Origin: Candidatus Zipacnadia bacterium
GTDB taxonomy: Bacteria; Armatimonadota; Zipacnadia; Zipacnadales; UBA5352
Assembly: GCA_029821635.1 (NCBI GenBank)
Contig: JALGSW010000042.1
Location: forward strand, 19,202-83,201
Direction: 5' to 3'
DNA: 64,000 nt
Shown here: positions 4,221 through 64,000 of the stretch, piece after piece
How positions within the stretch are numbered: the first letter of the stretch is position 1
How the letters are laid out: the number at the start of each line of letters is the position of its first letter
Program-made: the position numbers and the translations under genes
The notes under the pieces: model-generated
The model's database searches: none
Told to the model about the DNA's origin: nothing
Seen by the model: only the letters and a program-made list of their open reading frames with translations

Positions 4221-4262
4221 GGCAACGGCCGACGCATCCAAACGGCGGATGCGTCGCTCCAA
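4221..4262. repeat. family D element: 9-bp stem palindrome with AAACGGC loop (GACGCATCC-AAACGGC-GGATGCGTC), flanked by AACGGC repeats
   Basis: ggcaacggccgacgcatccaaacggcggatgcgtcgctccaaacggcaacggcg. Confidence 0.8.
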
Positions 4263-4282
4263 ACGGCAACGGCGTGACGGCT

Positions 4283-4303
4283 GACGGGCTGGAAGCCCGT
4301 CCC
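4283..4303. repeat. family B palindromic element (GACGGGCTGGAAGCCCGTCC) followed by AACGGC/GACGGC hexamer repeats
   Basis: Stem GACGGGC/GCCCGTC with loop TGGAA. Intergenic between the DUF721 gene and rtcB. Confidence 0.85.
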
Positions 4304-13821: not shown

Positions 13822-13852
13822 AACAGGATTCGGCGCTGCGCGCCGACAGGAT
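13822..13852. repeat. family C element (AACAGGATTCGGCGCTGCGCGCCGACAGGAT)
   Basis: Core hairpin GGCGC-TGC-GCGCC flanked by the direct repeats ACAGGAT. Followed by gacaacggcacaggataaggc. Confidence 0.85.
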
Positions 13853-13924
13853 TGGACGACAACGGCACAGGATAAGGCACCGGCCGGGCAAGGGGGGACG
13901 GCGAAGGCGGCAAGGGCCCGCGAG

Positions 13925-15277
13925 CTACGGCCGCAGCGGGCGGCGGCGGTCGATCAGGTCCGCGCGTACGCCAAGCTGCTCCAGGTACTCAATATACGCT
14001 GCGTGCAGGCGCTGCGCCTGGTCGGGATGCTCGGCGAGTACGTCGCGCGCCTGCGCCGGGTCCTCGGAAGTGTGATACAGCTCCGGTTCGGCGAGCGCCC
14101 CCGCGTGCTGGAGCGTCCACTCGCCATCGTTGATCGCGTTGTACTGCCGCATGTCGTCGGGCGCGTCGAGCTTGCCGGAGGTGACCGCGACCTCGCGCGA
14201 CCCCGGCCCGCCCGCGAGAGCCTTCAGCACCGAGACCCCATGTGTGTCCGCGGGCGCGTCGAGGCCCATGATCTCCATCAGCGTCGGCGCGATGTCCACC
14301 GGCTGGCAGAGCGCATGGCTCACGAGCCCCTCCGGCAGATTCGGCGCGCGCATCAGCAGCGGCACCCGCGCGACCTCGTCGTAGAATTGCCAGCCCGCCT
14401 TCGGCTCGAGCACCGTGTGCTTGCCAATGTACTCGTGCTCGCCATGATACCAGCCGTGGTCGGAGGTGAACGCAACCGCCGTGTCCTCGGCCAGGCCGAG
14501 GTCCTCGAGCTTCTGCAGGAAGCGCCCGATCGCCCGGTCCATCATCGTGATCGAGCCCGCGTAGAGCGCACGGGCGTGCTGCAGCTCGGCTTCGGTGAGG
14601 TAGCCCGCGTGGTCGTAGCGCGGGTAGATCGCCTCATCGCCCTCGTAGCCGGGATCGTACATGTCCGTGTAGTGCCTCGGCGGCAGCCACGGCTCATGCA
14701 CGTCGAAGGTGTCGATGAGCAGGTAGAACTTCTCATGCGCCTGATTGCGCTCAAGCCACTCCTCGGCGGCGCGGAACGTCTTCGGCGACGGCCAGTCGGC
14801 CTCGTTGTCGCGCGCGCAGTAGTTGCGCGACCACGGCTTCACCCAGTTCTGCGCCTGCCGCAGCTTGTCCGGATCGCACGGGACCTGCCAGTCCACCGGC
14901 TCGGTGCGCCAGCGATCGGCGATGTGCCCGCGGATCCACTCGACGCCGTGGAAGCCACGATGGTAGTTCATCCCCGGCGACATGAGCTGCGCATGATCGG
15001 CGATGAACTGCGTGACGTAGCCCTGCGCGTTGAGGCGCTCCTGAAGGGCGGAGTTCCCGGCGGCGATCGGTGCCCAGCCGGTGGTGTGAAAGACGTAGTT
15101 GGAGCACATCAGGTCATGCCGCTGGGGCACCGTCGGGAACGAGCCGACGTAGCAGTGCTCGTAGGTCACGCCGGACGCGGACAGGTCGTCGAGTGCGGGC
15201 GTCTGCACCCAGCCGTTGCCGTAGCAGCCGAGATAGTCGCGGCGGAGCGTGTCACAGACGATGAGAACCAGGTTCAC
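13925..15277 (-). CDS. sulfatase-family protein (iduronate-2-sulfatase-like), cytoplasmic, non-canonical active-site motifs
   Basis: TSDHGWYHGEHEY and NLVLIVCDTLRRDYLGCYG resemble the IDS-type sulfatase signature regions. The first metal-binding Asp is Cys and no CxPxR/SxPxR motif is obvious. GTG start at 15275-15277 with GGAGG 9 nt upstream. The track ORF extends to 15505. Confidence 0.6.
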   Translation of the reverse strand: MNLVLIVCDTLRRDYLGCYGNGWVQTPALDDLSASGVTYEHCYVGSFPTVPQRHDLMCSNYVFHTTGWAPIAAGNSALQERLNAQGYVTQFIADHAQLMSPGMNYHRGFHGVEWIRGHIADRWRTEPVDWQVPCDPDKLRQAQNWVKPWSRNYCARDNEADWPSPKTFRAAEEWLERNQAHEKFYLLIDTFDVHEPWLPPRHYTDMYDPGYEGDEAIYPRYDHAGYLTEAELQHARALYAGSITMMDRAIGRFLQKLEDLGLAEDTAVAFTSDHGWYHGEHEYIGKHTVLEPKAGWQFYDEVARVPLLMRAPNLPEGLVSHALCQPVDIAPTLMEIMGLDAPADTHGVSVLKALAGGPGSREVAVTSGKLDAPDDMRQYNAINDGEWTLQHAGALAEPELYHTSEDPAQARDVLAEHPDQAQRLHAAYIEYLEQLGVRADLIDRRRPLRP

Positions 15278-15374
15278 GGTGAGTCGCCTCCGGGAGCAGC
15301 GTCGTTCGCGCTGGGGGGAGGGTTCGACGGGGCGGGCGGCGGGGCCTTCGGGGGAACGGCGCCTCTCCCCCCTC

Positions 15375-16548: not shown

Positions 16549-16600
16549 AACAGGATTCGGCGCTGCGCGCCGACAGGATGGCGCTGCGCGCCAGCAGGAA
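16549..16600. repeat. family C element plus a truncated second copy
   Basis: aacaggattcggcgctgcgcgccgacaggatggcgctgcgcgccagcaggaa. Confidence 0.85.
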
Positions 16601-17828: not shown

Positions 17829-18782
17829 ATGAATGAGACCGGAGACGGGCAATCCACACGGGCTGCCGGATTCGCGGCGGCCCTTTTCAGCGGCGCGGTC
17901 ATGGGCGTCACGTGGCCGCTGCAGAAGTACGTGCTCGCGCAGGGCGTCGTCGGCCCGGCGACGATGCACTGGCTCAACGTGATCGGCCTCGTCGCGATCA
18001 TGGCGCCGATCTTCCTGATCCGCCATAGAGGCCGGCTGCGCTACCCCGGCTTCTCCCCGCGCTGGCTGCTGCTGGTGGGCCTGGTCGCCTGTGTCATGCA
18101 CTTCTGCCGCAAGTGGGGCGTGAACGAGACCTCCTCCACCACCGCTGCGGTGGCCGAGCGCTCCGAGGTCGTCTTCGTCTTCATCCTCTCCTACCTGATC
18201 CTGCACAAGCCTGTGCGGCCGATCGGGTGGCTGGGAACGGTCCTGGTACTCTTCGGGACGATCACCGTGGCGCTCGTGGGCTCGGCGGAGCTGCACTTCC
18301 ACCCGCTGGGGGTCATCGCGCTGGCGATCACCGGCCTGACTGTTGCCGTCAACGCGACCATCATAAAGACGAAGCTCAGCGGCATCCCCAACGAGCTGAT
18401 CATCCTCGGCAGCATGGCGGTGCAACTGGTCGTATTCAGCGCGTGGGTGACCGGCGGTGGGCTGCTGCCCGAAGTGCGGGCGTTGATGGGCGTCCCGATG
18501 CTGGCCGCGCTGGTGGGCATGGGCTCGGTGGTCTGGGGCGGGAATCTGGCGATCTACTACTTCGCGCTCAAGCACGCGCCGATGTGGGCGGTGCGGATGC
18601 TCACGCTCAGCGGCCTGCCGGTGGCGACGCTCGCGGACCTGTGGGTGCTGCACGAGCCGGTGACGACCGGGCACGTCATCGGGCTCGTGGCGGCGATGGT
18701 CGGGGCGGGGCTGGTGATCCTCGCGGAGCGCAACGGCTGGAACGACGACGACGGGCTGGAAGCCCGTCCCACAAACGGCTGA
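17829..18782 (+). CDS. EamA/DMT family transporter (10 TM)
   Basis: Hydrophobic 10-helix pattern with two EamA halves. The last 10 codons (DGLEARPTNG) and the stop are supplied by a REP-like family B element. Confidence 0.8.
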   Translation: MNETGDGQSTRAAGFAAALFSGAVMGVTWPLQKYVLAQGVVGPATMHWLNVIGLVAIMAPIFLIRHRGRLRYPGFSPRWLLLVGLVACVMHFCRKWGVNETSSTTAAVAERSEVVFVFILSYLILHKPVRPIGWLGTVLVLFGTITVALVGSAELHFHPLGVIALAITGLTVAVNATIIKTKLSGIPNELIILGSMAVQLVVFSAWVTGGGLLPEVRALMGVPMLAALVGMGSVVWGGNLAIYYFALKHAPMWAVRMLTLSGLPVATLADLWVLHEPVTTGHVIGLVAAMVGAGLVILAERNGWNDDDGLEARPTNG

Positions 18783-18823: not shown

Positions 18824-19756
18824 ATGCGGATCGATCAGGACCCACGATGGACACGGATGGCGGGCTACATAGCGGCGCTGCTCTCAGGCATCGTCATGGG
18901 TCTGTCGTGGGTGATCTTCAAGCTCGAGCTGAACCTCGAGGAACTCGGCCCAGCCGACGTGAACTGGCTCAACATGATCGGCGTGGCCGCGATCATCTGG
19001 CCCGTCTACCTGATCCGCAACCGTGAGCACCTGTTCCCGCGCGGGCAACCCTACCGCTGGCTGCTGCTCTTCGCGACCCTCGCAGCCGGCATCTTCTACC
19101 TGCGCAACATCGGCGTGGACCTGTGCGGCCCCACCACCGCCGCCATCATCAGCCGCACCGAGACCGGCTTCGTCTTCATCCTCTCCTACCTGATCCTCCA
19201 CCAGGCCGTAAGCGGTCTCGGCTGGATCGGCACCGCCCTGCTGCTGGTCGGCGCGATGCGCACCATCGGCATCGGCTCGGTGGGCCTGACCTTCCCGCTC
19301 GCAGGCGTCGCCGCGCTGGCCGTCGCCGCCGCGCTCATCGCACTCAACGCGGTCATCATCAAGACGCAGTTCAACAAGGTGCCCAACGAGCTGGTCATCC
19401 TCGCCAGCGCGACCGTGCAGACGATCGTTTTCTCGATCGCGGTGCCGGCGTTCGTGGGACTCGACGGCGCGCGCTACGTGCTCGCACACCCGCACGCCAT
19501 GCGGCTCGTGGCGCTCGCGTCGCTGGGGATCGCCGGGAACCTGTTCCTGTACTACTACGCGATGAAGCGCGCGCCGATGTGGGCGGTGCGGGTGCTGGCG
19601 CTGGTAGCGCTTCCCGCGGCCGTCGCGGGCGACTACTTCGTGCTTGGCCAGCCGATCACGACGGACGCCGTGCAGGGGATGGGGCTGGTGATCGCCGGGG
19701 CGCTTATCGTGATCCACGCGGGCCGGCGGCGGAACGGCGACGGCAACGACTCTTAA
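18824..19756 (+). CDS. EamA/DMT family transporter, tandem paralog
   Basis: Clear paralog of the preceding gene (…ISRTETGFVFILSYLILHQ… vs …AERSEVVFVFILSYLILHK…). The stop TAA lies within a family C repeat (TAACAGG). Confidence 0.8.
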   Translation: MRIDQDPRWTRMAGYIAALLSGIVMGLSWVIFKLELNLEELGPADVNWLNMIGVAAIIWPVYLIRNREHLFPRGQPYRWLLLFATLAAGIFYLRNIGVDLCGPTTAAIISRTETGFVFILSYLILHQAVSGLGWIGTALLLVGAMRTIGIGSVGLTFPLAGVAALAVAAALIALNAVIIKTQFNKVPNELVILASATVQTIVFSIAVPAFVGLDGARYVLAHPHAMRLVALASLGIAGNLFLYYYAMKRAPMWAVRVLALVALPAAVAGDYFVLGQPITTDAVQGMGLVIAGALIVIHAGRRRNGDGNDS

Positions 19757-19830
19757 CAGGATTCGGCGCTGCGCGCCGACAGGATCCCGCCCTGCGGGCG
19801 GGAACAGGAAACGGCACAGGATACGGCAAG
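19755..19830. repeat. family C element (overlaps the TAA stop of EamA-2) followed by the palindrome cccgccc-tgc-gggcggg and AACGGCACAGGATACGGCA
   Basis: ttaacaggattcggcgctgcgcgccgacaggatcccgccctgcgggcgggaacaggaaacggcacaggatacggcaagg. Confidence 0.85.
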
Positions 19831-21081: not shown

Positions 21082-21143
21082 TGTCGTAGTCGTACGTAGG
21101 ACAGGCCTGTCAATTCTGTTCGTGAATCGAGTAACCGACAACT

Positions 21144-21207
21144 GACAGGCTGGAAAGCCTGTCCTACAACGACAACGACTGACAGGCTGGAAAGCCCATC
21201 GTGTAGG
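21144..21207. repeat. family A palindromic element (GACAGGCTGGAAAGCCTGTCCTAC), two tandem copies, second degenerate
   Basis: Stem GACAGGC/GCCTGTC with loop TGGAAA. Intergenic between the aminotransferase and isomerase genes. Confidence 0.85.
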
Positions 21208-22966: not shown

Positions 22967-22990
22967 TGACAGGCTGGAAAGCCTGTCCTA
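22967..22990. repeat. family A palindromic element
   Basis: gacaggctggaaagcctgtcctacgaacg, between the convergent peroxiredoxin and URO-D genes. Confidence 0.85.
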
Positions 22991-23106
22991 CGAACGACTG
23001 ACGACGACGGCGTCTCACCCTCCCGGAAGGACGCCAACGGCATCTCCGTGGCACGGGCGTCTCGCCCGTGCAGAGCCGTTGCCACGCACAGACAACACCA
23101 CCTCTC

Positions 23107-24390: not shown

Positions 24391-27201
24391 ATGCTTTCGC
24401 GACTGGCTCTCGTGGTAATCGTCGTCACCGAACTGATCGCATCGGCGGCCTTCGCCGATCCGGCGGCCGCCGGCCCGCTGCCCAGCAGCGAGATCGAGCA
24501 CCCGGCGGTGATGCACATGGTGAGCGACCGCCGCCTCGACGTGGACGATGCCCGCACCGCCGAGCTGGTGCGGCAGGCGATGGCTTTGAGCGACGAGCAG
24601 ATCGCGCAGATGATTCTCCCCGAGCACGGTCTGATCGACGACCTGGTGTGCCCGACCTGCGGCTCGCAGAAGGTCAACTTCTCGCTGGACCATCCGGACG
24701 AACTCGACTGTCCGGAGTGTGGGGCCGTCATCACCGCCGAGACGCTGCCGACCGACTTCGAGACGAGCGGCCCGAATCTGCTGGGTGAGACGGTCACCTA
24801 CACGCTGAGCACCGTGCGGCCCGGGCCGGTGGGCATCGCGGCGACGATCCGCTTCCGCCGGCACTTCGAGATGGCCGCGGCGGCGCGGGCGCTGGGTGAG
24901 GCCTACCACGAGAGCGGCGATGAGGCGCTGGCGCGGCGGTCGGTGCAGATCATGGCGCGCTTCGTGGAAGTCTACCCGCACTGGCCGGTCTTCCAGCGCG
25001 GCGGCAAGCCGTACTGGCGGGTCTGGACGATCGGCCCGCCGCGCCCGTACAGCGACTGGCTCTACGGCCGCTGGTCCGACCTGTTCATGTATGAGATCCC
25101 GCAGGACCTCGTGTTCGCGTATGACCTGATCTACGAGGCGACCGCGTGGGAGGAGCTGGCGCAGGAGGGCGAGGACCTGCGGCGGGAGATCGAGGAGACG
25201 CTGTTTCGCCCGGCGCTTGAGTTCGCGCTGACGGCCCACGCCGACTGTGGCGGGCGCATCTACAACCTCAACCCGACGCTCTACCAGCGGATGATCCACC
25301 TCGGCCGCGTGCTCAACGACCCCGACATGGTGCACCAGGCAGTGCGCTTCATGCAGGAAATGATCCGCATGTCCTACCACTTCGACGGGATGGAGTACGA
25401 GGGCACGCTGACCTACCACGGGGTGGTGACGTGGCGGCTGGCGATCGCGATGCGGATGCTGTCGGGCTATCAGGACCCGGTGGGCTACGTGGACGAGCGC
25501 TTCGGCATTGTGCTGGGCGGCGGGGAGGAGCCGCTGAACATGCCGATCTACCGCCGGGCCGGGCAGGTCACGGGCATGATGACCTTCCCGGACGGCAATC
25601 GCGTCTGCGTGCATGATACGAGCTGGGGCGCGGGCCGAGCAGAGACGCCGCCGGAGGTGGAGCCGGCGAACATCGAGCTGAACGCCTACGGGCACTATGC
25701 CGTAGGGGGAGGGCGCGGCGCGGACGGGATGCAGGCGCACCTGCACTTCTGCCCGCGCATCAAGGGTGGGCACTTCCACTGGGATCGCCTCGGGCTGATC
25801 CTGTGGGGTGCGGGGGAGGAGCTGCTGCCCGACACCGGCTACGTGAACATGGGCAAGCCGCACCGCTACTTCATCAACCGCCAGCTCGCGCACAATAGCG
25901 TGGAGGTGTTCTTCGACACCCCACTCGAGGAGCCGGAGATCGTGCCGCCCGCCGAGGCGCCGACCGACCCGGTCGGGCGCTTCAGGGCGCTGGCGGAGGC
26001 TGAGAGGCCGGTGGTCTACGCGCGCTCGCAGCTCATCGCGTATGATCCCGGCACGGTCTCGGACGGCCGCGTGCAACTCATCGCGGCAACCTCGCCGGGC
26101 CCCGAGTGGATGGGCATGCAGCGGCAGGAGCGGCACCTGCTGATGGTGCGCGTGGATGAGCGGCGCAGCTACCTCGTGGACGTCTTCCGCGTGGCGGGCG
26201 GCGACCGCCATCGCTTCACCCTCCGCGCCAGCGCCGATGAGGACGTGGCGACGGAGTGCGCGCTGCCGATGGAGCCGGTGCCGGGCACGCTCGCGGGGCC
26301 GGATGTCCCCTACGGACAGGTGACGAAGGGCACCGAGCCCTATTCGTGGCTGGTGCACGACATGCGCCGCGCGCAGACCGCCGAGCCGTGGGAGCTGACC
26401 TGGACGGGCGCGGACAGCGGCGCGTCGCTGCGCGCGTTCTTCGCCCCGCAGCAGGGCGCGGAGGTGACGCTCGGGATGTCGCCGACGCTGCGCCGGGCGA
26501 TGCAGGACGCGCGCAGGGCCGACGACTACCAGGGTCCGCACCTGCTGGTCGAGCATGACGGGCCGGAGAGCCTGTTCGCGGCGGTCTACGACTGCTGGCC
26601 GGAGGGCTCCGCGCCCGCGGTGCAGTCGGTGGCGTGGGAGACGCTCGGCGAGGGCTCGGACGCGGCGCTCGCGCTGCGGGTGACGCTTAACGGTCGCGAG
26701 GACGTGGTCTACTGCAGCCTCGATCGCGAGGAGCGCGAGGTTGCGGGCGTGCGCTTCGCAGGACCGTGGGCGGTTGCGTCGCTGCGCGAGGGCAGGCCGC
26801 AGTGGGCGTGGGCGCATGACGGCTCGGTCGCGTGGCGCACGCGCGCGGAGGGCATCAGCGTCAGCGCGCCGGAGCGCATCGAGCTGCCGCTGGTGGCCAC
26901 GCGGCGCACGGAGGATGGTGCGGCAGCGGACGCGCTGGTGGTGGCGGGCGCGATTCCCGACGCAGAGGGCCTCGTGGGCCAGTGGGTGCGCGCGCTGCTC
27001 GGCGACGACCCGGCCTACGGCTACGGCGTGGCGGCGGTGCGCACCGAGGGCGGGCGGACGGTGCTGGAGCTCACGGGCGGCCCGGGGCTGAGCGTGGTGG
27101 ACGACCGCTGGGAGCTGCTCTTCAACCCGTTCTTCCGGGGAGACGGTCCGTGCCGGGTGGAGATCAGCCGCAGCGCGTTTGGCGAGGCGGACGGCCTGTA
27201 A
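24391..27201 (+). CDS. secreted heparinase II/III-like (alginate-lyase superfamily) polysaccharide lyase family protein
   Basis: ORF 24331..27201 trimmed to MLSRLALVVIVV… (signal peptide). Alpha/alpha-toroid N-terminal half and beta-sandwich C-terminal half. The stop TAA is embedded in a family C repeat. Confidence 0.65.
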   Translation: MLSRLALVVIVVTELIASAAFADPAAAGPLPSSEIEHPAVMHMVSDRRLDVDDARTAELVRQAMALSDEQIAQMILPEHGLIDDLVCPTCGSQKVNFSLDHPDELDCPECGAVITAETLPTDFETSGPNLLGETVTYTLSTVRPGPVGIAATIRFRRHFEMAAAARALGEAYHESGDEALARRSVQIMARFVEVYPHWPVFQRGGKPYWRVWTIGPPRPYSDWLYGRWSDLFMYEIPQDLVFAYDLIYEATAWEELAQEGEDLRREIEETLFRPALEFALTAHADCGGRIYNLNPTLYQRMIHLGRVLNDPDMVHQAVRFMQEMIRMSYHFDGMEYEGTLTYHGVVTWRLAIAMRMLSGYQDPVGYVDERFGIVLGGGEEPLNMPIYRRAGQVTGMMTFPDGNRVCVHDTSWGAGRAETPPEVEPANIELNAYGHYAVGGGRGADGMQAHLHFCPRIKGGHFHWDRLGLILWGAGEELLPDTGYVNMGKPHRYFINRQLAHNSVEVFFDTPLEEPEIVPPAEAPTDPVGRFRALAEAERPVVYARSQLIAYDPGTVSDGRVQLIAATSPGPEWMGMQRQERHLLMVRVDERRSYLVDVFRVAGGDRHRFTLRASADEDVATECALPMEPVPGTLAGPDVPYGQVTKGTEPYSWLVHDMRRAQTAEPWELTWTGADSGASLRAFFAPQQGAEVTLGMSPTLRRAMQDARRADDYQGPHLLVEHDGPESLFAAVYDCWPEGSAPAVQSVAWETLGEGSDAALALRVTLNGREDVVYCSLDREEREVAGVRFAGPWAVASLREGRPQWAWAHDGSVAWRTRAEGISVSAPERIELPLVATRRTEDGAAADALVVAGAIPDAEGLVGQWVRALLGDDPAYGYGVAAVRTEGGRTVLELTGGPGLSVVDDRWELLFNPFFRGDGPCRVEISRSAFGEADGL

Positions 27202-27262
27202 CAGGATTCGGCGCTGCGCGCCGACAGGATGGCGCTTCGCACCAACAGGAACGGCAAACAGC
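27200..27262. repeat. family C element (contains the TAA stop of the heparinase-like gene) plus a truncated second copy
   Basis: gtaacaggattcggcgctgcgcgccgacaggatggcgcttcgcaccaacaggaacggcaaacagcgg. Confidence 0.85.
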
Positions 27263-27471
27263 GGGGGTTACAGGATGAAAAGGACCAACGGAGAGGTCGT
27301 TGGAGAGGCCGACCGCCGGCAGACGCATCGCGTCTGGCGGCGTGTGCCGCCAGCCGTCCGCGCCCCGACCCGCTCCATCCTTGCCGTTCGTGGAGCAGGC
27401 ATCCCTGCCTGCTGCCGTTGCGAACCGCCGCGTTGACGCACCTCGTCATTTCATCCGGAGGCGGGGGGGAC

Positions 27472-31210: not shown

Positions 31211-33073
31211 ATGCGCATGAAGCTTGTACTGAGCGCCGACAATCAGCCGGCGGCGAGCGTGGTCATCGAGGCCGACTCGCCGCCGGCCGTTTCTTTCGCC
31301 GCGAGTGAGTTGAGTCGCTACCTCGCGATCCTCACCGGCGGGCGGTTCCCTGTGTGTGAGGGGGAGGCGGCGGAGGGGGCGGTGATACGGCTGGGCACGG
31401 CGCCTCACCCCCCCGGCCTCCCTCTCCCTGGCGTCGCAGACGACGCGACGCAAGCGGGAGAGGGGGGAGAACGGCAGACGGGCTGGAAGCCCGTCCTACA
31501 AACGACAAACGGCACGACGCTGGCGCGTGGTTCGTACGCGTGGCGGGTGCATGAGGGTGGGGTGGAGGTCGTCGGGGAGCGGCCGGGGGCGGTGCTGCAC
31601 GCGGTCTACGCGCTGCTTGAGACGATCGGCTGCCGGTGGCTGCACCCGCGCGATGGCGGGGAGATCGTGCCGCGCATCCCGCGCATCGAGCTGGCTCTCG
31701 GCGAACACGCCGCGCAGCCCGAGCTGGCCCACCGCGAGCTGACGAACCTCCACTCGATCGACCGCGAGTACCCCCTGCACATCGACTGGATGGCGAAGAA
31801 CCGCCTCAACCGCTTCATGGCGTTCCTCAACGTGGAGGGCTCGCAGGAGGCGTTCGCGGAGTTCATCGAGCCCGAGCTGGCCGCGCGTGACATGGACGCG
31901 ACCCTCGGCCATCACAGCTTCCGCTTCCTGCTGCCACCCGAGCAGCACTTCGCCGACCATCCGGAGTGGTACGCGCTCATCGACGGGGAGCGCAGCCCCG
32001 ACGGGCAGCTCTGCACGTCGAACCCGGAGGTCGCCGAGCGGGCTGCCGAGCGCATCTGCGAGCTGTTCGACGCCCACCCGACCGTGGAGATGTTCGGCCT
32101 GTGGCCCAATGACGGCTTCCGCTGGTGCGAGTGCGACGAGTGCGCGAAGCTCGAGCCGCAGATGCCCTCGCGCTTGCGCTCCGACGCCCCGCGGCGCACC
32201 GACACCTACCGGCTCTTCGTGAACGCAGTTGCCGAGCGCGTCGCGCGGGCGCACCCCGACCGGCGCATCGGCGCGCTGGCCTACGTCAACTACGCCGACG
32301 CGCCCGAGGCGGTGCGGCCCGCGGACAACGTGGCGGTGTGCTTCGCGCCCTTCCTCCGCTGCCTCAAGCACCCGCTCCGCCCGGACGTGGAGTGCGAGCG
32401 GCTCAACGCCGCGTACGCGCGGGAGTTCGAGCGCTGGCGCGGGATGGTCGCGGGCGACCTCTACCTCTTCAGCTACCTCTCGCAGATACACACGCTCTCG
32501 CTGCCCTACCCGATCCACACGATGCTGCCGGCGAACTGGCAGTGGCTGATTGACGCGGGCTGCGACGGCTTCGTGATGGAGTTCGTGCCCGAGGAGTGGG
32601 GCGCGTTCGGCGCGAATCTCGAGCTGATCGCACGGCTCGCGTGGGAGCCCGACACCGACGCGCAGGCGTGGCTGGGGGAGCGTGACGAGCTGATCTACGG
32701 CCCGGCGGCGGCGGTGATGGGCGACTACCGGCGGGAGCTGGCTGAGGTCATGATCGCGGGCGGCGGCTGCACCGGGCACTACGACGTGACGTGGACGCGC
32801 GGAGCCGACGAGCGAACGCTGCGGGCAGCGCTGGACGCGCTCGGGAAGGCCCGGGCGCTCGCAGCCACCGGTGAGAAGCGGCACTGGCAGGCGGCGGAGC
32901 AGGCGTGGGTAGGGCTGGAGCTGCTGATGCGCGCGGGCGAGTGGCAGCGCCTGCTGCGCGACGGCCTGCAGGACCGCGCGGACGAGGCGCTGGAGCGCAT
33001 GGTGGCGTTCGCGTCGGAGCAGGCGGACAGCGGCGCGGTGGACGCGGCGAGGTATGAGCGGTTGCTCAGCTAG
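31211..33073 (+). CDS. DUF4838 domain protein (glycoside-hydrolase-like, GH20/GH67-type N-domain)
   Basis: N-terminal pattern of DUF4838 proteins (…ASELSRYLAILTG…, …LHAVYALLETIGCRWLHP). Contains an in-frame ~43-codon insertion made of palindromic repeat families E+B at 31392-31520. Confidence 0.65.
   Translation: MRMKLVLSADNQPAASVVIEADSPPAVSFAASELSRYLAILTGGRFPVCEGEAAEGAVIRLGTAPHPPGLPLPGVADDATQAGEGGERQTGWKPVLQTTNGTTLARGSYAWRVHEGGVEVVGERPGAVLHAVYALLETIGCRWLHPRDGGEIVPRIPRIELALGEHAAQPELAHRELTNLHSIDREYPLHIDWMAKNRLNRFMAFLNVEGSQEAFAEFIEPELAARDMDATLGHHSFRFLLPPEQHFADHPEWYALIDGERSPDGQLCTSNPEVAERAAERICELFDAHPTVEMFGLWPNDGFRWCECDECAKLEPQMPSRLRSDAPRRTDTYRLFVNAVAERVARAHPDRRIGALAYVNYADAPEAVRPADNVAVCFAPFLRCLKHPLRPDVECERLNAAYAREFERWRGMVAGDLYLFSYLSQIHTLSLPYPIHTMLPANWQWLIDAGCDGFVMEFVPEEWGAFGANLELIARLAWEPDTDAQAWLGERDELIYGPAAAVMGDYRRELAEVMIAGGGCTGHYDVTWTRGADERTLRAALDALGKARALAATGEKRHWQAAEQAWVGLELLMRAGEWQRLLRDGLQDRADEALERMVAFASEQADSGAVDAARYERLLS
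31478..31520. repeat. family B element inside the DUF4838 CDS (in frame), with AACGAC/AACGGC tail
   Basis: gacgggctggaagcccgtcctacaaacgacaaacggcacgacg. Confidence 0.8.
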
Positions 33074-39528: not shown

Positions 39529-39552
39529 CGGCGGACGGCTGTGTGTCGTTCG

Positions 39553-39576
39553 TAGGACAGGCTTTCCAGCCTGTCA
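39553..39576. repeat. family A palindromic element (inverted orientation)
   Basis: cgttcgtaggacaggctttccagcctgtcag. Same 31-mer as at 40304-40334. Confidence 0.85.
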
Positions 39577-39615: not shown

Positions 39616-40287
39616 ATGAACCGCACACTTGCGATAATCCTCGGTGTGGGCCTGGGACTGGCGCTGCTCGGCGCCGGCGCGTGGGTCTTCGCGCGTGAGG
39701 ACGTCCGCGACCTGCGCCTGCAGATCGTCCGCAACGTGGACCCCGGCGCCTTCGAGCAGCAGTCCCGGGCGCTCTTCGAGCAGCGCTACCCCGATGAGAA
39801 GCCGCTCAACTGGGCGATCGCCGATACCGCCGAACGCTTCTACCACGAGCAGCCGATGGGCCGCTTCGTCCTGCACGAGAATGACTGCTCGGACTTCGTC
39901 GGCTGCATCATCGACGAGGCGCTCGGCGCAGACGCGCGCTTCAACCGCGACAGTGACGAGCACGCGCTCTGCGGCGAGGGCGGCTCAACGCCACGCGCGC
40001 TCTTCGACATCCGGAGGCTGCCAGAGAGGGGGGCGGTCCAGCCGGGCGACATTGTGCACGTGCGGCATTCGCCGTGGTACGCACCACACGAGGACTCGAT
40101 CGGGCACGTCGGCGTCGTCGGTCCGGACGGGCGCGTGATCGACTTCACGAAGCTCAAGAGCTGGTCCAGCGCGCGCTACAACCAGGTGGAGTTCGACTTC
40201 TTCATCCAGAACAACGCGCCGGACGAGGTGAGGATCGGAAGGCTGCGGCCGGAGTTCCGCTACCGGGTGCTGGATATACGGCAGTGA
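39616..40287 (+). CDS. membrane-anchored NlpC/P60-like papain-fold hydrolase (putative)
   Basis: N-terminal TM anchor. HENDCSDFVGC catalytic-Cys context and downstream His (IGHVGVV) resemble NlpC/P60/CHAP-type enzymes. Confidence 0.5.
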   Translation: MNRTLAIILGVGLGLALLGAGAWVFAREDVRDLRLQIVRNVDPGAFEQQSRALFEQRYPDEKPLNWAIADTAERFYHEQPMGRFVLHENDCSDFVGCIIDEALGADARFNRDSDEHALCGEGGSTPRALFDIRRLPERGAVQPGDIVHVRHSPWYAPHEDSIGHVGVVGPDGRVIDFTKLKSWSSARYNQVEFDFFIQNNAPDEVRIGRLRPEFRYRVLDIRQ

Positions 40288-40309: not shown

Positions 40310-40333
40310 GTAGGACAGGCTTTCCAGCCTGTC
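40310..40333. repeat. family A palindromic element; supplies the stop codon of gene 40332..42011
   Basis: cgttcgtaggacaggctttccagcctgtcag. Confidence 0.85.
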
Positions 40334-42011
40334 AGTTGTTGACGTCCGTCCCGGCCCTCAGCTCCGGCACCGCCCCCGCTTCCGGGAAGCGATAGATCAC
40401 CAGCGCCCCGGTGTCGTGCACCGCTTGCAGCCACGAGAGCCCCCGCAGCGCGCTCGCCTGTCCCGGCGTCGCCGCTACCCAGCCGCAGCCGGACTCGCGC
40501 AAGATCTCCCTACGCCGCGCCTGCGCGGTGCCCGGCGCGAAGAACTCCTCCGCCAGCGCCTGCTTGCCCTGCGGATCGACCGTTACCTGCAGATGCCCGA
40601 CGGACACATGCCGCAGCGCGTAGCGACAGCAGTACTGCCCCACGGTCATGCTCGTGAACACGCGCGCGTCCGGCGGGGTGTTGGCCTCGATCCACTCGAA
40701 GCCCTGGAGCATCCCGAGCGGGATGCGCGCCTGCTGCGCCCGCGCCCCGTGAACCAGCAGCATCACGTTCGTCGGTAGGATCGCGACCAGCAGTAGCACG
40801 AGCGCGAGTCTGCGCGCGCGGCCCTCCGAGCCGGCCAGTCGGTCGCGCAACCACGGCAACACGCACCCGGCCATGCCCGCGCCGGCGAGCAGAGCCAGGG
40901 GGATATGTATTCCCTCGACCGCGCGGCGCTCGAAGGGCACCAGGGGATAGGAGTAGGCCATCAGCACGCTGACGAGCGCCCAGAGCACGAGGAATTGCCC
41001 GACCGGCGGCGCAGGCGGAACGTCGTCGGCGGGCTCCCTGCGCATGGCGCCGCGCCCGAGGATCGCCAGCGGCAGCACGATGCCCATGCCGATCAGGTAG
41101 ACGTGCAGCGCGGGCGAGCGCAGCAGGTTCTGCTCCGACCACACCGCCACCATCGGATGCGTCTTCGACTGCAGCGCGTACGCGGCCGCCGGGATCGTCG
41201 CGCCCGCCAGCGCCCACGCGTTGACGGCCACCGTGCGCGCGGGGACGCGCGCCAGTGCGCAGACCGCGGTGTGCAGCACCAGCAGCGGCCCCCAGACCAC
41301 GATGTCGTAGGGATGCACCGCGATCAGCAGCAGCGCCCAGCCGGCCGCGGCGAAGCTGAGGCGCATCGACGGCGCGCGCCAGGCCCTCAGCAGCGTCAGC
41401 GCCAACAGCGCCATCAGGCACAGCGTGAGCGTGAAGTGCGGCAGCAGGAATGAGTGATACGCCCAGAGCTCGGGCATGAGGTCGGCGGAGAAGATGACGG
41501 TGCGGCCCGCGAGGGCGTTGATTACGTCGCAGATCGCCCCGAAGCCACTGCCCAGCGCGCCGATCGCGAAGGCGAAGAGGCGCGCGTTGGGGTCGCGGAA
41601 GACCTCACTGATCAGCCGCCAGAGGATCAACAGATAGGCGAAGGCGAGGGCGACGGCGACGATGCGGTAGAGGATGATCGGCGGGATGGGGATGATGCGC
41701 GCGAGCATCCCGAGCGCGACCCACTGCGGGCCGACGAACATCGGCGGCGCCTGCTCGGCGGTCGCGAGGTTGTCCATGAGCACGCCCCCGGCCTGCGCCT
41801 GGCGTGCCCACATCAGGTAGAGGTTCTGATCGTTGTGCGCCTCGACGAAGCCGGTGAAGACCTCATCCGCGGGGCAGGTGAGCGCCTGCCACGCGTGCGG
41901 AATCGCCGATGACAGCGCCAGCGCGACGCTCAGCGCGAGCACCCAGCGCGGCCAGGCAGGAGTTCTGTCGGCAGTCGTGCCGCTCACCCGCGCGGGCTCC
42001 TCCCATCCCAC
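40332..42011 (-). CDS. polytopic membrane protein, GT-C-like glycosyltransferase candidate
   Basis: ~11 TM helices with an early periplasmic DE motif (PADEVFTGF) and a soluble C-terminal domain. The stop codon is provided by a family A repeat. Confidence 0.45.
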   Translation of the reverse strand: MGWEEPARVSGTTADRTPAWPRWVLALSVALALSSAIPHAWQALTCPADEVFTGFVEAHNDQNLYLMWARQAQAGGVLMDNLATAEQAPPMFVGPQWVALGMLARIIPIPPIILYRIVAVALAFAYLLILWRLISEVFRDPNARLFAFAIGALGSGFGAICDVINALAGRTVIFSADLMPELWAYHSFLLPHFTLTLCLMALLALTLLRAWRAPSMRLSFAAAGWALLLIAVHPYDIVVWGPLLVLHTAVCALARVPARTVAVNAWALAGATIPAAAYALQSKTHPMVAVWSEQNLLRSPALHVYLIGMGIVLPLAILGRGAMRREPADDVPPAPPVGQFLVLWALVSVLMAYSYPLVPFERRAVEGIHIPLALLAGAGMAGCVLPWLRDRLAGSEGRARRLALVLLLVAILPTNVMLLVHGARAQQARIPLGMLQGFEWIEANTPPDARVFTSMTVGQYCCRYALRHVSVGHLQVTVDPQGKQALAEEFFAPGTAQARRREILRESGCGWVAATPGQASALRGLSWLQAVHDTGALVIYRFPEAGAVPELRAGTDVNN

Positions 42012-55050: not shown

Positions 55051-55175
55051 GACACGTTCCCCTCTCGTTGTGCTCGCGACAACGACCGCAGGCTGGAATG
55101 CCTGAAGCGCAGAGCGCTTTGCGCGAGTTCGCTTCGCGAACGTCGATGCTCCACGAACGGCACGAACGGACATCT

Positions 55176-55199
55176 GACAGGCTGGAAAGCCTGTCCTAC
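55176..55199. repeat. family A palindromic element; supplies the TAG stop of the giant gene. A degenerate copy lies at 55088-55110
   Basis: gacaggctggaaagcctgtcctac. Confidence 0.8.
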
Positions 55200-59836: not shown

Positions 59837-59930
59837 GGTGAGTGCCTCCTGATAGCTGCGAACGACGTCGTTGCCCAGTCGTATGGAGGGGAGGGGCTTC
59901 AGCCGCTCCCACGTGCTCCGATACCCCCCA

Positions 59931-59990
59931 ACGGCCGACGCATGTAAACGGCACATGCGTCGCTCCGAACGACAACGGCGGAACGGCGAA
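59931..59990. repeat. family D element (GACGCATGT-AAACGGC-ACATGCGTC) with AACGAC/AACGGC tail
   Basis: acggccgacgcatgtaaacggcacatgcgtcgctccgaacgacaacggcggaacggcgaacggc. Same architecture as 4221-4262 with a compensatory change in the stem. Confidence 0.8.
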
Positions 59991-59994
59991 CGGC

Positions 59995-60879
59995 TCACTC
60001 GCAGATCGCCTGAAGCTCCGCGAGGCGTTCGGGTGACTGGCGCTGCGCGTCCGGCAGCGGGTCGGGTAGGCCCAACCATGAGTACTTCCCGCCCGTCGCC
60101 GGGTTGAAGGGCAGAAGCTCAATCCGCTCCACGCCGAGGCTCCTTGCCAGCGTCGCGATCTCGCGGACCGCCTCGTCCGTGTCATTCACGCCCGGGATCA
60201 GCGGCACGCGCACCAGCACGTCCGCGCCGCTCGCGAGCAACGCCCGCAGGTTCGCGATGATCTGCTCGTTCGGCGCGCCCGTGTACGCCTCGTGGGCCGC
60301 CGAGTCCGCCAGCTTCAGATCGTAGAGCCACAGGTCCAAGGCCTCGGCGAGGCGCTCGATCGTCTCCCATGGCGCGAGCCCGCAGGTCTCCAGCGCCACG
60401 TGGATGCCCGCGTCGCGGCAGAGGCTCGCGATGGCGTGCGCGAAGTCGGCCTGCGCGGTCGGCTCGCCGCCGGTGATCGTCACCCCGCCGCCCGTGCGCG
60501 CGAAGAAGGGCGTCAGGCGCGCTGCCATGTCGGCGATCTCGCCCGCGGTCGCCTCGCGGCCCTTGACCTCCAGCGCGCCCGCCGGGCAGGCCTCGATGCA
60601 CGCGCCGCACAGCGTGCAGCGCGCGCGATCCTCCGGGGCGATCAGCCCCGGTCGGCGGATGCGCTGCGGGCAGGCATTCACGCACGCGCCGCAGTGTGTG
60701 CAGCGGGTCTCGTACCAGACGATCTCGGGCGCGAATGCCTGCGACTCGGGGCTGTGACACCACGCGCAGTGCAGCGGGCAGCCCTTCAGGAAGACGGTCA
60801 TACGCACGCCGGGTCCATCGTGCAGCGCGGTCTGGTCGATATCGAAGATCGTGCCGGTCACATCGCGCAAGTCCTTCAC
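59995..60879 (-). CDS. glycyl-radical enzyme activating protein (radical SAM with ferredoxin-like insert)
   Basis: GCPLHCAWC (CxxxCxxC) followed by CTHCGACVNACP and CTLCGACIEACP motifs. GTG start overlaps the GRE stop (GTGA) with GAGGAG upstream. The rest of the track ORF is antisense overlap. Confidence 0.8.
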   Translation of the reverse strand: MKDLRDVTGTIFDIDQTALHDGPGVRMTVFLKGCPLHCAWCHSPESQAFAPEIVWYETRCTHCGACVNACPQRIRRPGLIAPEDRARCTLCGACIEACPAGALEVKGREATAGEIADMAARLTPFFARTGGGVTITGGEPTAQADFAHAIASLCRDAGIHVALETCGLAPWETIERLAEALDLWLYDLKLADSAAHEAYTGAPNEQIIANLRALLASGADVLVRVPLIPGVNDTDEAVREIATLARSLGVERIELLPFNPATGGKYSWLGLPDPLPDAQRQSPERLAELQAICE

Positions 60880-63164
60880 CAGCCCAACTCCTCGCGCGCG
60901 ATGACTTCCTCCTGCGCGTGCTTGCTCAGCAGCACGAAGGGCACGAGGTAGCCGCCGATGCGCACGAACAGGTCGCGGTGCGCGTCGGGATTCGCCTGCG
61001 CCGCGCGCATCTGCTCGGTGGAGGCGAGGTTGAACTGAAGCTGGTAGGCGCCGAGGTCCATCGCGGCCTCGGTGAGGCCCTTGAGCGCGTCGGCGCCCTC
61101 GTCGGTGTCGAGCACACTCGCCTGGAAGCGCACGTTGCAGGTGGTGCCGCCGAGCCCGCGCGAGTTGTCGAACTCGTCGGTGATCGAGCGTACCAGCGCC
61201 GGGAAGCCGTTCGTCTGCACGCCGGTGCAGTTCATGATCGAATTCGCCAGCGGCTCGCCCGCGAGGCGGCCGTCGGGTGTGGCGGGCGTGCGCTCGCCGT
61301 AGGCGATCCAGACGGTCCAGCCGAGGAAGCCGGGCAGGAACGGGCCTCCGAGGTAGTTGCGGTTGCCCTCGACCAGGTCCGACCAGCCCCCCGCGACTTC
61401 GCCGAAGAGCCGGTTGCACTGGGCATCGTCGGTCCCATGCTTGGGGCAGTCGCGCTTGATCGCGCGGCGCAGGTCGTCGTGGCCGCGGAAGTTGTCGCGG
61501 ATCGCCGAGCGGAAGTTGTCGAGCGTGTACTCGCCGCGCTCCTCGACCAGCGTCTGCACCGCCGCGAGCGCGTCCACCACGTTCGACGCGCCGACCGCCT
61601 CGGGCTGGATGAAGTTGTAGAGCGCGCCGCCGTCGGACATGTTCCGGCCGCTCTCGATGCAGCCCTCGATGAGGCACGAAAGCAGCGGGAAGGGCCGGTG
61701 GATCGACTGCAGCCACAGGTCGCGGTTGCACTGGATCACCGCGCCATCGACCGCATGGGCCAGCACGCGCTCGTAGGCGTGGCGGAGTTCGGCGTACGTT
61801 GTAGGACAGGCTTTCCAGCCTGTCAATGTCCTACGAACGGCCCAACTGGCGGGCGGGTCGGTCAGCCGCAGGCCGACGTCCGCCGCGAAGTCATCGGCAT
61901 GGCCCTTCTCCGGGTGCACGCCGCCGAAGAGCGCGTACTCCAGGCACATCGCGAGGTTGACGTAGGGCCATGCGACGTGCGGGTTGCTGCGGCCCATGAT
62001 CGAAGTCTCGGTGCAGGTGCTGGGCAGGTGATCGACCGCGTGCTCGAAGGGCACGCCGTGCCGCACGAGGCCCTTCGTGATTTGGTCGGAGTTGAAGATC
62101 GATGGCTGGCCCTTGCCGTTGCGCAGCAGGGCCATCGCGTGGCGCATGAACTGCGGATCGATGTCCGCGTGCCACGAGATGTCGATGCCGGGGAAGTACA
62201 TCTCCACCCGATCGGTCAGCTCGAGGATGCGGAACGAAAGCTCGTTGGTGCCGTCGGAGCCGTCGGGCTTGCGGCCGCCGATCACGAGAATCACAGCGCT
62301 CATCGACGGGCCCTGGAACTCGTTGCACTTGATCATGAGCTGGGCCAGCAGGTCCTCGGTAAGCGCCTCGTCGAGCGTGCCCGCATCGCGTTCGGCCTCG
62401 TAGAAACGCCGCAGCCACTGATCGATGCGCCCCGGGCCGAAGCAGTGGTGATGCTGGGAGTTCTCCAGCGCGCAGCCCATGAACATGAACCAGCCGAGCT
62501 GGATCGCCTCGCGGAAGCTGCGCGGCGGCTCGTGGGCGATCTGCCGGCAGGTCGCGGCGGCCTCGCGCAGGTCATCGGCCCACGCGGGATCGGTGGCGTC
62601 GTCGGCCATCTCCTGCGCGAGGTCGGCGTAGCGCTCGATGAGCCGCTGCAGGCCGCCGAGGGCGATGCGCGCGGCCTCGTAGAAGTGCTGCTTCGCAGGC
62701 GTCTGCGGGTCGTCGGGCCGCAGCGCGTGCTCGGCGTCGTCGATGCGCTCCATGATGCCGCCGAGGCCCTGCTTGCACGCGGTCGGGTAGTCCGGCGCCA
62801 TGTGCCCCTCGGAGACGAAGCCGCGCCACTGCTCACGCCCGAGGTAGGCGTTCGCCTCGGCGATCTCCGCGGCGAGGGCCTCATCGGCGTGCGTGTTCGG
62901 GTGCCGGCCGACGAGCCTCTCGCCCTCGCGGATGCGCACGGGCATCTGCTCGAAGAGGTGCGCGACGGCCTGCGCCACGCGTATCTGCCGGCGCGGCTCA
63001 CCCTCGGTGGCGCGGAAGCTCTCGGCCATGATGATCGCGCGCTCGTCGAAGGCGCCCCCGTCGGCGAGGACGTCCTCGCGCAGCGCGCGCGACCACTCCG
63101 AGAGCCCGTCGGGGCCTACGGGGCGGGGCAGGGCGTCGGTTGTACGATCTGCGACGGTTGCCAT
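60876..63164 (-). CDS. glycyl radical enzyme (PFL-like / 1,2-diol-dehydratase-lyase family)
   Basis: ORF 60876..63644 trimmed to MATVADRTTD (ATG 63162-63164, GAAGGAGA RBS). Cys-loop LIEGCIESG. Glycyl motif FVRIGGYLVPF near the C-terminus. Contains an in-frame family A repeat at ~61795-61840. Confidence 0.8.
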   Translation of the reverse strand: MATVADRTTDALPRPVGPDGLSEWSRALREDVLADGGAFDERAIIMAESFRATEGEPRRQIRVAQAVAHLFEQMPVRIREGERLVGRHPNTHADEALAAEIAEANAYLGREQWRGFVSEGHMAPDYPTACKQGLGGIMERIDDAEHALRPDDPQTPAKQHFYEAARIALGGLQRLIERYADLAQEMADDATDPAWADDLREAAATCRQIAHEPPRSFREAIQLGWFMFMGCALENSQHHHCFGPGRIDQWLRRFYEAERDAGTLDEALTEDLLAQLMIKCNEFQGPSMSAVILVIGGRKPDGSDGTNELSFRILELTDRVEMYFPGIDISWHADIDPQFMRHAMALLRNGKGQPSIFNSDQITKGLVRHGVPFEHAVDHLPSTCTETSIMGRSNPHVAWPYVNLAMCLEYALFGGVHPEKGHADDFAADVGLRLTDPPASWAVRRTLTGWKACPTTYAELRHAYERVLAHAVDGAVIQCNRDLWLQSIHRPFPLLSCLIEGCIESGRNMSDGGALYNFIQPEAVGASNVVDALAAVQTLVEERGEYTLDNFRSAIRDNFRGHDDLRRAIKRDCPKHGTDDAQCNRLFGEVAGGWSDLVEGNRNYLGGPFLPGFLGWTVWIAYGERTPATPDGRLAGEPLANSIMNCTGVQTNGFPALVRSITDEFDNSRGLGGTTCNVRFQASVLDTDEGADALKGLTEAAMDLGAYQLQFNLASTEQMRAAQANPDAHRDLFVRIGGYLVPFVLLSKHAQEEVIAREELGW
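61801..61824. repeat. family A palindromic element located inside the glycyl-radical-enzyme CDS, in frame
   Basis: gtaggacaggctttccagcctgtcaatgtcctacgaacg. Translates on the gene strand as …RRTLTGWKACPTT… without a stop. Confidence 0.8.
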
Positions 63165-63201
63165 GATCGGTCTCCTTCGCGTGAATGCGAACGACAACAG
63201 C

Positions 63202-63245
63202 GACGGGCTGGAAGCCCGTCCTACAAACGACGTAACGTCAACGAC
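63202..63245. repeat. family B element with AACGAC tail, between the GRE start and the sulfatase stop
   Basis: aacgacaacagcgacgggctggaagcccgtcctacaaacgacgtaacgtcaacgacg. Confidence 0.85.
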
Positions 63246-63249
63246 GTCG

Positions 63250-63312
63250 TTCTCCCCCTCTCCCGCTTGAAACCGCGTCGTTTGCGGTTTCCAGGGAGAG
63301 GGGGCCGGGGGG
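63250..63312. repeat. family E nested palindrome: CCCCCTCTCCC-[GAAACCGCG-TCGTTTG-CGGTTTC]-GGGAGAGGGGG
   Basis: tctccccctctcccgcttgaaaccgcgtcgtttgcggtttccagggagagggggccgggggg. Confidence 0.75.
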
Positions 63313-63327
63313 TGAGGTAGCCTTACG

Positions 63328-64000
63328 CTAGTTAAACACCGCCCGCTGCTCCCGGATGATGCGCCGCTGGCCCTCGGCCCAGGGGTCGAGGAGCTCGCGC
63401 AGATACCAGACCTCTTCCGGATTCGCGTCGGCGAGGTTGTTCGCCTCGCTGAAGTCCTCAGCGATGTTCGACAGCCACACCTCGGGCACCGAGTCGTCGT
63501 TGTCGCGCAATCCTCCGTTGAGCACCAGCTTCCAGTCGCCGCGGCGGATGGCGGTCTGGCCCGCGAGGTGCCAGGCGATCCAGTCGTGGGGATTATCCGC
63601 CCCGTTGACCACCATGTCCAGCAGCGAGACGCCGTCGAGGTCATAGCGGGACAGATCGCCGCCCACCGCCTCGAGCATCGTGGGGAAGATGTCCATCATG
63701 ATACCCACTTCCGAGGACACCTGCCCGCCGGCGATGGTTCCCGGCCAACTCATGATCGCGGGCTCGCGGACGCCGCCGTCCCAGCAGGTGCCCTTGTGCC
63801 CCTTCAGGCCGCCGGTGGTGCCGCCGTAGTAGGGGTCCCTGGTGCCATCGAGCCAGTTGCGCGTCTCCCGCGACGGGCCGTTGTCCGACGAGAAGAAGAT
63901 GAGGGTGTCCTCGCGGATGCCCTCGGCCTCCAGCGCCGCGATGATCCGGCCCACGCCATCGTCCATGCACGCGATCATTGCCGCCATGATCTGCTTGTCC
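63328..64000 (-). CDS. sulfatase (arylsulfatase family), C-terminal part; N-terminus beyond window edge
   Basis: FFSSDNGP and GHKGTCWDGGVREPAIMSWPG sulfatase signature regions. The reading frame stays open to the window edge. Confidence 0.8.
   Translation of the reverse strand, partial: DKQIMAAMIACMDDGVGRIIAALEAEGIREDTLIFFSSDNGPSRETRNWLDGTRDPYYGGTTGGLKGHKGTCWDGGVREPAIMSWPGTIAGGQVSSEVGIMMDIFPTMLEAVGGDLSRYDLDGVSLLDMVVNGADNPHDWIAWHLAGQTAIRRGDWKLVLNGGLRDNDDSVPEVWLSNIAEDFSEANNLADANPEEVWYLRELLDPWAEGQRRIIREQRAVFN

Follow-up and report, generated by a model that had tools for sequence, protein, structure and literature searches.

Palindromic Repeats in Bacterial Coding Sequences

Repetitive extragenic palindromes (REPs) are short hairpin repeats that are mobilised or maintained by REP-associated tyrosine transposases (RAYTs). 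The REPIN-RAYT systems (REPIN, inverted REP doublet) were reportedly described by Nunvar in 2010, by Bertels and Rainey in 2011, and by Ton-Hoang in 2012. The subject here is a REP that lies in frame within a gene for a glycyl radical enzyme (GRE), on a 64-kb stretch of DNA (64,000 nucleotides, hereafter the window) from Candidatus Zipacnadia bacterium of the phylum Armatimonadota (contig JALGSW010000042.1, positions 19,202 to 83,201). An original prediction, made from the letters of this stretch, had drawn attention to a palindromic repeat in that gene and had compared it with the palindromic elements of Rickettsia.

Two super-families of REPs, tagged with GTAG or with CGTC, have been defined (Di Nocera et al., 2013, BMC Genomics 14:522; PMC3733652). 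Intragenic REPs are reported there from several species, with the greatest number in Opitutus terrae; as a rule they form dimers or groups that encode 20–30 aa, and many are argued to sit in flexible loops. A second precedent is provided by the Rickettsia palindromic elements (RPEs; Ogata et al., 2000, as summarised in PMC10969869 and PMC3733652), which in their classical form measure ~100–150 bp, occur solely in Rickettsia, and specify a conserved peptide of ~30–50 aa. In-frame RPEs are summarised in a 2024 review covering miniature inverted-repeat transposable elements (PMC10969869), and the short elements RPE-4 and RPE-6 have been equated with CGTC REPs (PMC3733652).

Like the intragenic GTAG REPs of the O. 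terrae uvrA and DNA ligase genes (PMC3733652), the element in the GRE gene is a GC-rich palindrome headed by GT[AG]G and lies in frame in an enzyme gene. It likewise consists of a monomer and a partial partner, supplies a short extra peptide, and belongs to a REP-rich genome with several coexisting families, some of which overlap gene ends. It differs from those cases in its host, a GRE of an Armatimonadota-like lineage, and in replacing native sequence, so that the protein gains a single net residue rather than 20–30 aa. With RPEs, as they are portrayed in the same sources (PMC10969869; PMC3733652), it shares the presence of palindromes in frame in unrelated protein genes, where they are tolerated and co-translated. 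The Rickettsia parallel of the original prediction holds as a mode of action but not as a class: the element measures 25–45 nt, its host is Armatimonadota-like, and it is GTAG-tagged, unlike the CGTC-tagged RPE-4 and RPE-6. In-frame GTAG REPs have already been published (Di Nocera et al., 2013), and the locus does not represent a new kind of system. Three features set it apart, namely a nearly length-neutral replacement, a heterogeneous and recurrent occupancy of one loop, and a 24-mer conserved across phyla beside RAYTs that are 27–44% identical.

A Complete REP Unit in the Glycyl Radical Enzyme Gene

The GRE gene (60876..63164, minus strand) encodes a protein of 762 aa that starts MATVADR and contains the Pfam domains PFL-like (PF02901, 3.9e-119) and Gly_radical (PF01228, 1.9e-14). 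Positions 61797..61841 of this gene are confirmed to be repeat-derived and in frame; on the minus strand they supply codons A442-T456 (AVRRTLTGWKACPTT), as established by a codon map and six-frame translation. The boundary at T456 is ambiguous by ~3 nt, as ACG equally fits the native PQ-T-Y. A complete unit of one of the window's REP families (family A) occupies 61797..61825 on the plus strand, antisense to the GRE; as the reverse complement it is identical at all 29 positions (29/29) to the copy at 21143-21171, and the aligned copies have the GTAG head and the flanks in common. Read on the plus strand, the unit comprises a CGTT flank, a GTAG head (61801-61804), an 8-bp stem whose arms are GACAGGCT (61805-61812) and AGCCTGTC (61817-61824), the intervening loop TTCC (61813-61816), and a terminal A. 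Beyond it, at 61827..61839, lies an inverted partial REP of 13 nt on the minus strand, made up of flank and head, which reads CGTTCGTAGGACA on the gene strand and agrees with the consensus that the copies at 22968, 39556, and 40314 give for the 5' flank and head (gtCGTTCGTAGGACA). This remnant pairs with the complete unit and thereby extends the outer stem. The folded RNA of 61785-61855 (minus strand) has a free energy of -29.4 kcal/mol (z = -3.0), and an Rfam search of the site matched no RNA family.

These observations bear out much of the original prediction. The repeat does run through the GRE gene in frame and without a stop, the gene strand encoding ...DPPASWAVRRTLTGWKACPTTYAELR..., and the identity of the host is confirmed by Pfam. 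The flank cctacgaacg (61830-61839), which had been assigned to the element, repeats the REP 5' flank and head in inverted form, and the string LTGWKACPT, which had been seen at other copies, recurs at each of the six exact copies in one relative frame. Within the GRE, the antisense reading of the complete unit gives LTGWKACPT and one frame of the REP head gives VRRT; six-frame translation of the REP consensus yields VVRRTGFPACQS and RLTGWKACPTND, and VRRT and LTGWKACPT are translations of two of its stop-free frames.

The unit belongs to a genuine REP family, one that flanks RAYT genes in other genomes. It has the GC-rich palindrome of the GTAG class, with a 25-nt unit, an 8-bp stem, the loop TTCC, and a GT[AG]G tetranucleotide at one end, and within the window it is dispersed, multi-copy, mainly extragenic, and located near gene ends. 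The 20-nt core GACAGGCTTTCCAGCCTGTC occurs seven times in the window (six exact copies and one with 2 mismatches), against a chance expectation of 0 copies in 100 dinucleotide shuffles. The in-gene copy itself, one full unit with a 13-nt inverted remnant of a head, is not a canonical REPIN doublet.

Replacement of a Native Loop Segment

A database search returned ~30 orthologues (60–88% identity) that cover the position of the element. In ~23 of these the position is occupied by a native segment of constant length with the consensus [SG]WxxAxxxL[VL]xxEPQTY, for example RDGFARMANGLPRT, and no REP is present. The residues of the window differ here from those of orthologues at 60–85% identity, in agreement with the earlier view that the element is not native GRE sequence, and blastn homology to the orthologues is lost at 61799 on one side and at 61833-61859 on the other. 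The original prediction had looked for an insertion of about 18 residues. Codon comparison with the orthologous loci L002, L008, and L009 gives instead 15 REP-derived codons (A442-T456) in place of 14 native ones, a net gain of 1 aa: L002 reads TGG CGT GAT GGG TTC GCG CGG ATG GCT AAC GGC CTT CCG AGG ACT TAC, and the window reads TGG GCC GTT CGT AGG ACA TTG ACA GGC TGG AAA GCC TGT CCT ACA ACG TAC. The event is thus a replacement, or an insertion plus a deletion, and not a pure insertion. Candidate routes to such a replacement may include insertion plus deletion, collapse of a repeat cluster, or gene conversion.

The affected loop sits in a clade-specific segment of ~33 aa that is gapped in the ~728-aa homologues and in solved structures; that this whole segment is itself an ancient repeat insertion is a speculative notion. 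The native residues form a short helix and a coil preceding the long helix 457-489, rather than the short linker that had been supposed. The placement of the element upstream of the catalytic Cys loop also required revision. This loop is S382-T383-C384-x-E386, which aligns with the Cys loops of glycerol dehydratase and of the hydroxyproline dehydratase HypD and whose STCxE motif is invariant in an alignment of 71 homologues, and the element lies ~58 residues downstream of C384. The conserved motif LLSC..GC at 494-502 was probably mistaken for the Cys loop.

Recurrent Occupancy of the Loop in Orthologues

Palindromic repeats are present at the same GRE loop in seven other orthologues, and all of them are in frame. 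L001/P0002 carries a decayed and shortened REP (AGGACAGGCAAGAATGACTGTCCGAC) that has lost its palindrome and is still in frame. L005/P0026 carries four GTAG units, two in each orientation, and shares with the window both the left head (CGT AGG ACA) and the 3' junction (CCT ACA ACG|TAC). A different REP, GTGGCGCAGGCATyCCTGCCTGCG, with a family relative at 27390 in the window, occupies the loop in L004/P0013, P0070, and L006/P0010; the P0070 contig ends inside it, as expected where a dispersed repeat breaks assembly. In L007/P0004 a GTGGGGCGGGG... REP lies within an insert of +28 aa and the native residues are retained, and in L003/P0005 the loop contains dispersed-repeat sequence that is also intergenic in the same contig. 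The equivalent loop of a more distant homologue of the 728-aa clade (P0038, 58% identity; gene 5001-7277 of L116) bears an in-frame insert of ~30 aa (L116:6225-6345) that consists of two long GGGGGACAGGC...GCCTGTCCCCC hairpins, a palindromic element of a different kind.

In a neighbour-joining tree of the GRE orthologues built without the loop, the REP-bearing P0004 is placed next to the native P0003 and the REP-bearing P0010 next to the native P0009. Because REP alleles adjoin native sisters in this way, at least three independent events are indicated. The alleles differ in REP family, in unit number (one to four), in orientation, and in their junctions, of which at least three different left and at least three different right ones fall within ~40 nt. 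A single precise insertion target was rejected on account of these junctions, whose diversity points to a permissive region, perhaps one in which REPs attract REPs, rather than to one exact target site. Comparison of the orthologous sequences suggests that the GRE loop is a recurrent landing or turnover site for REPs. The presence of different REPs at one loop in several orthologues is not found in the passages of PMC3733652 drawn on here.

Integrity of the Enzyme and the Favoured Explanation

The host protein has the features of a genuine GRE, with a PFL-like barrel, a C-terminal glycyl-radical domain in which R735-I-G737-G738-Y739 is invariant, the catalytic Cys loop (C384, E386), and an adjacent radical-SAM activase. 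Its nearest solved relatives are the B12-independent glycerol dehydratase and HypD (~1e-85 among PDB homologues). The AlphaFold2 model has a predicted local distance difference test score (pLDDT) of 92.5, and its best Foldseek matches are 1r8w, 2f3o, and 6vxc, with a TM score of 0.87 to both 1r8w and 6vxc. Every invariant column of the 71-sequence alignment is kept in the window GRE, including C384, E386, and R735-G737-G738-Y739. With the loop excluded, dN/dS against seven orthologues is 0.18–0.30, and the activase gene is intact. Models of the window GRE and of the native P0003 show identical local secondary structure, with a helix at 439-447, a coil, and a long helix from 457/456, respectively. 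Local confidence alone is lower, block 441-450 scoring 68 in the window protein and 87 in P0003.

The explanation considered probable is that a GTAG-type REP is tolerated in frame in a hypervariable, permissive loop of the GRE that serves as a recurrent site of REP turnover. On this explanation the REP would have settled, in frame and stop-free, in the permissive clade-specific loop of an intact gene, and the loop peptide would derive from one complete unit read antisense together with the inverted remnant of a REP head. With the catalytic elements untouched, the protein would most likely be made and be active with its REP-encoded loop, judging from its sequence. The REP would be a neutral or near-neutral passenger and not a regulator. 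In related Armatimonadota-like genomes, REP clusters at this loop would expand, contract, and decay while selection preserves the frame. They may recur here for two reasons: extra peptide is tolerated at this loop, and resident REPs may attract further REP events. The decayed yet in-frame REP of L001 indicates that REP alleles persist in intact genes. Mobilisation by a RAYT of this genome and the order of events are presumed in this scheme.

Several points weigh against this explanation. Simple transposition does not give a length-preserving replacement. Retained activity is read from sequence conservation, and surface exposure of the loop from pLDDT, secondary structure, and tolerance of indels, so both are best called probable properties of the protein. 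The REP core is pristine (29/29), and the copy may therefore be very recent, with selection perhaps yet to act on it. The strong mRNA hairpin could affect translation or mRNA decay. Finally, no RAYT was found in the 64-kb window by tblastn with an E. coli RayT/YafM query sequence.

Alternative Explanations

A stronger form of the favoured explanation, possible although doubtful, holds that the loop is a "landing pad" for REPs in coding sequence, rewritten repeatedly in frame by RAYT insertion, by expansion and collapse of clusters, and/or by gene conversion. Such rewriting would account for protein-length polymorphism among related Armatimonadota and for a window copy kept 100% identical to the genomic family. 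Junctions shared with alleles at a dS of ~0.4 suggest that the first insertion was old. If it were true, the loop would offer a natural system for the study of REP target choice and of how mobile palindromes seed protein loops.

It is unlikely that the in-gene REP is itself functional, either as an mRNA hairpin that tunes translation or decay of the GRE-activase operon or through a REP-encoded loop that lends the enzyme a new property, for instance binding to a partner or a redox-active Cys453. The hairpin is stable (the fold energy given above), REP sequence recurs at the loop in several lineages, and RNA-level roles for transcribed REPs have been proposed (PMC3733652). However, family, number, orientation, and peptide vary from allele to allele, which leaves no RNA or peptide feature conserved among them; ~23 orthologues have no REP at the loop, the palindrome has been lost in L001, and Rfam gave no match.

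Nor is it at all likely that the GRE has recently been disabled, the REP having destroyed a needed helix and left a young pseudogene that has yet to acquire further lesions. That the REP core is identical to other copies would fit a very recent event, the sequence of the native helix has been lost, and local model confidence falls from 87 to 68. Against this, the frame is kept without stop codons, the invariant residues and the activase are intact, and dN/dS is in the range given above. In-frame repeat peptide occurs in the seven other orthologues, including the decayed copy in the intact gene of L001, and the loop is absent in the 728-aa sister clade and so is not essential to the fold. The original prediction had left a tolerated loop insertion and a recently disabled gene side by side; the invariant residues, the dN/dS values, and the in-frame repeats of the orthologues favour the former.

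An assembly artefact, in which a dispersed repeat was mis-joined into the GRE during metagenome assembly or binning, is very improbable. The source is evidently a contig of the metagenome-assembled genome (MAG) type, and the P0070 contig breaks inside a REP at this very site, but on either side of the element a single GRE runs on in an unchanged frame, frame and length would seldom survive a chimeric join, and independent assemblies from different samples (L001, L003-L007) have a repeat at the same loop. That the similarity is coincidental, or that the repeat family derives from the GRE gene, has nothing beyond a priori possibility in its favour and can be dismissed in view of the 29/29 nt match against 0 expected by chance, the orthologues that do not have these residues, and the exact 24-mer in at least 106 genome stretches of many phyla, beside RAYT genes and independent of this gene.

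Association with RAYT Genes and Spread over Phyla

When GTDB species genomes were scanned for exact matches to the 24-mer GTAGGACAGGCTTTCCAGCCTGTC, it was recovered in at least 106 stretches, which include members of Planctomycetota, Acidobacteriota, Chloroflexota, Armatimonadota, Melioribacteraceae, WS1, and others, and it is present in genomes of at least seven phyla. In two of these stretches, L096 and L049, the exact 24-mer directly flanks genes (L096:5723-6253, minus strand; L049:1409-1993, plus strand) that score above the curated cutoff of NCBIfam NF047646, the REP-associated tyrosine transposase; tblastn found no such gene in the 64 kb of the window. L096 is an Armatimonadota MAG with 81% nucleotide identity to window positions 13929-15354. 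In L113 the exact REP lies against the end of an incomplete, RAYT-like open reading frame (ORF; L113:1-271), a tblastn match that was compared by BLASTP and is 41–44% identical to the L096 and L049 RAYTs. In both L049 and L113 the GTAG head supplies, with its TAG, the stop codon of the RAYT-type gene, an arrangement also seen at 55196 in the window. The matches of the E. coli query in L096, L049, and L104 were verified by NCBIfam and Pfam. The L104 RAYT was excluded as an association since the REP that flanks it belongs to a different family.

The locus thus resembles REPIN-RAYT systems in the architecture of its REP, in the exact REP that flanks RAYT genes elsewhere (as REPtrons in L096 and L049 and beside the partial ORF of L113), and in the inverted doublets of the exact REP that occur in L113 and L032. 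It differs from them in having no RAYT in the window and, in the gene, a monomer with a head remnant in place of a REPIN doublet. Such systems are said to be lineage-specific and vertically inherited, whereas here the same 24-mer extends over many phyla and the RAYTs it flanks share only 27–44% identity. That a REP should be more conserved across phyla than its own transposase is unexpected, and horizontal transfer, constraint on recognition, or MAG contamination may be responsible. Tight tandem arrays of this REP, with three to five units in the same orientation and a period of 30–40 nt, were also observed in some genomes (L036:1700-1888, L054:6216-6299, and L079:3740-3843); these resemble clusters of the bacterial interspersed mosaic element (BIME) type.

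Other Copies in the Window and the Genomic Context of the GRE

Seven family-A and four family-B REPs are present in the 64 kb, mostly in short spacers abutting gene ends. GTAG stands directly 5' of the stem in all six exact family-A copies, and family B (GT[AG]GGACGGGCTTCCAGCCCGTC) carries GTAG or GTGG. The family-A copy closest to that in the GRE (21143..21167, minus strand, identified by sequence match) is intergenic and has a degenerate neighbour at 21181-21200 that is in tandem, not inverted. A further intergenic copy identified in the same way lies at 22967..22991 (minus strand), and another, at 39552..39576 (plus strand), lies between genes that end at 39528 and start at 39616. The copy at 40310..40334 (plus strand) is located between convergent genes and touches the 3' end of 40332..42011 (minus strand). 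That at 55175..55199 (minus strand) exactly fills the 22-nt spacer of two minus-strand genes, and the large gene that ends at 55196 takes from its GTAG head both the TAG stop and the base that completes the final Leu codon. A generic scan for GT[AG]G plus a palindrome gave 15 matches against a shuffle mean of 6.7, and in view of this high background exact family matches only were used. Beyond families A and B, other dispersed intergenic repeat families occur in the window, at 13822-13873, 16549-16600, 19755-19806, and 27200-27251 and at 4223-4287 and 59929-59993. One is of the type AACAGGATTCGGCGCTGCGCGCCGACAGGAT..., and another is of an ...TCCAAACGG... or AACGGC-rich type that is akin to segments seen in the GRE loops of L003, L004, and L006. 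Short palindromic repeats are unusually abundant in the source genome.

Family B provides a second in-frame REP (GTAGGACGGGCTTCCAGCCCGTC, antisense), at 31476-31499 inside a DUF4838-family coding sequence (31211..33073, plus strand). It encodes ...GEGGERQTGWKPVLQTTNGT..., and BLASTP to a paralogue in L008 aligns on both sides of it; from this alignment it appears to be a true in-frame insertion of ~20–25 aa in the N-terminal domain. Another family-B REP (18749-18772) supplies the C-terminal ~11 residues (…DDDGLEARPTNG*) of an EamA-type transporter (17829..18782, plus strand) that has a tandem paralogue at 18824..19756, and it probably extended or replaced the C-terminus of that protein. REPs at 27390 and 4282 that seemed to lie inside ORFs were rejected, the N-termini of those ORFs being over-extended.

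Close to the GRE, a family-B REP (GTAGGACGGGCTTCCAGCCCGTC; 63201..63224, minus strand) occupies the spacer between the sulfatase gene and the GRE gene, 37 nt upstream of the GRE start, and the same spacer holds REPs in L003, L006, and L008. A longer GRE ORF reaching 63644 was rejected as an over-extension through an upstream REP. On the other side of the GRE gene lies that of its radical-SAM activating enzyme (59995..60879, minus strand; Pfam Radical_SAM, Fer4, and Fer4_12), the start of which overlaps the GRE stop codon, and the same arrangement recurs in orthologous loci. The gene order sulfatase, GRE, GRE-activase (window 59995-63987) is conserved in several of these (L006, L008, and L009), and a heparinase-like gene lies in the neighbourhood together with glycoside-hydrolase-like or DUF4838 genes. 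Such a setting hints that the GRE clade acts in the catabolism of sulfated glycans or sugars.

Implications for the Glycyl Radical Enzyme Family

At this locus a REP has become part of the gene for a complex radical enzyme with no evident harm to its coding sequence, and one permissive loop appears to have been hit repeatedly in related genomes. For annotation and for inference based on alignments this calls for caution, as the loop is not homologous between orthologues. The locus would represent a small natural case of mobile DNA making variation in a protein loop, and it may mark a position in the GRE family that is tolerant of engineering.

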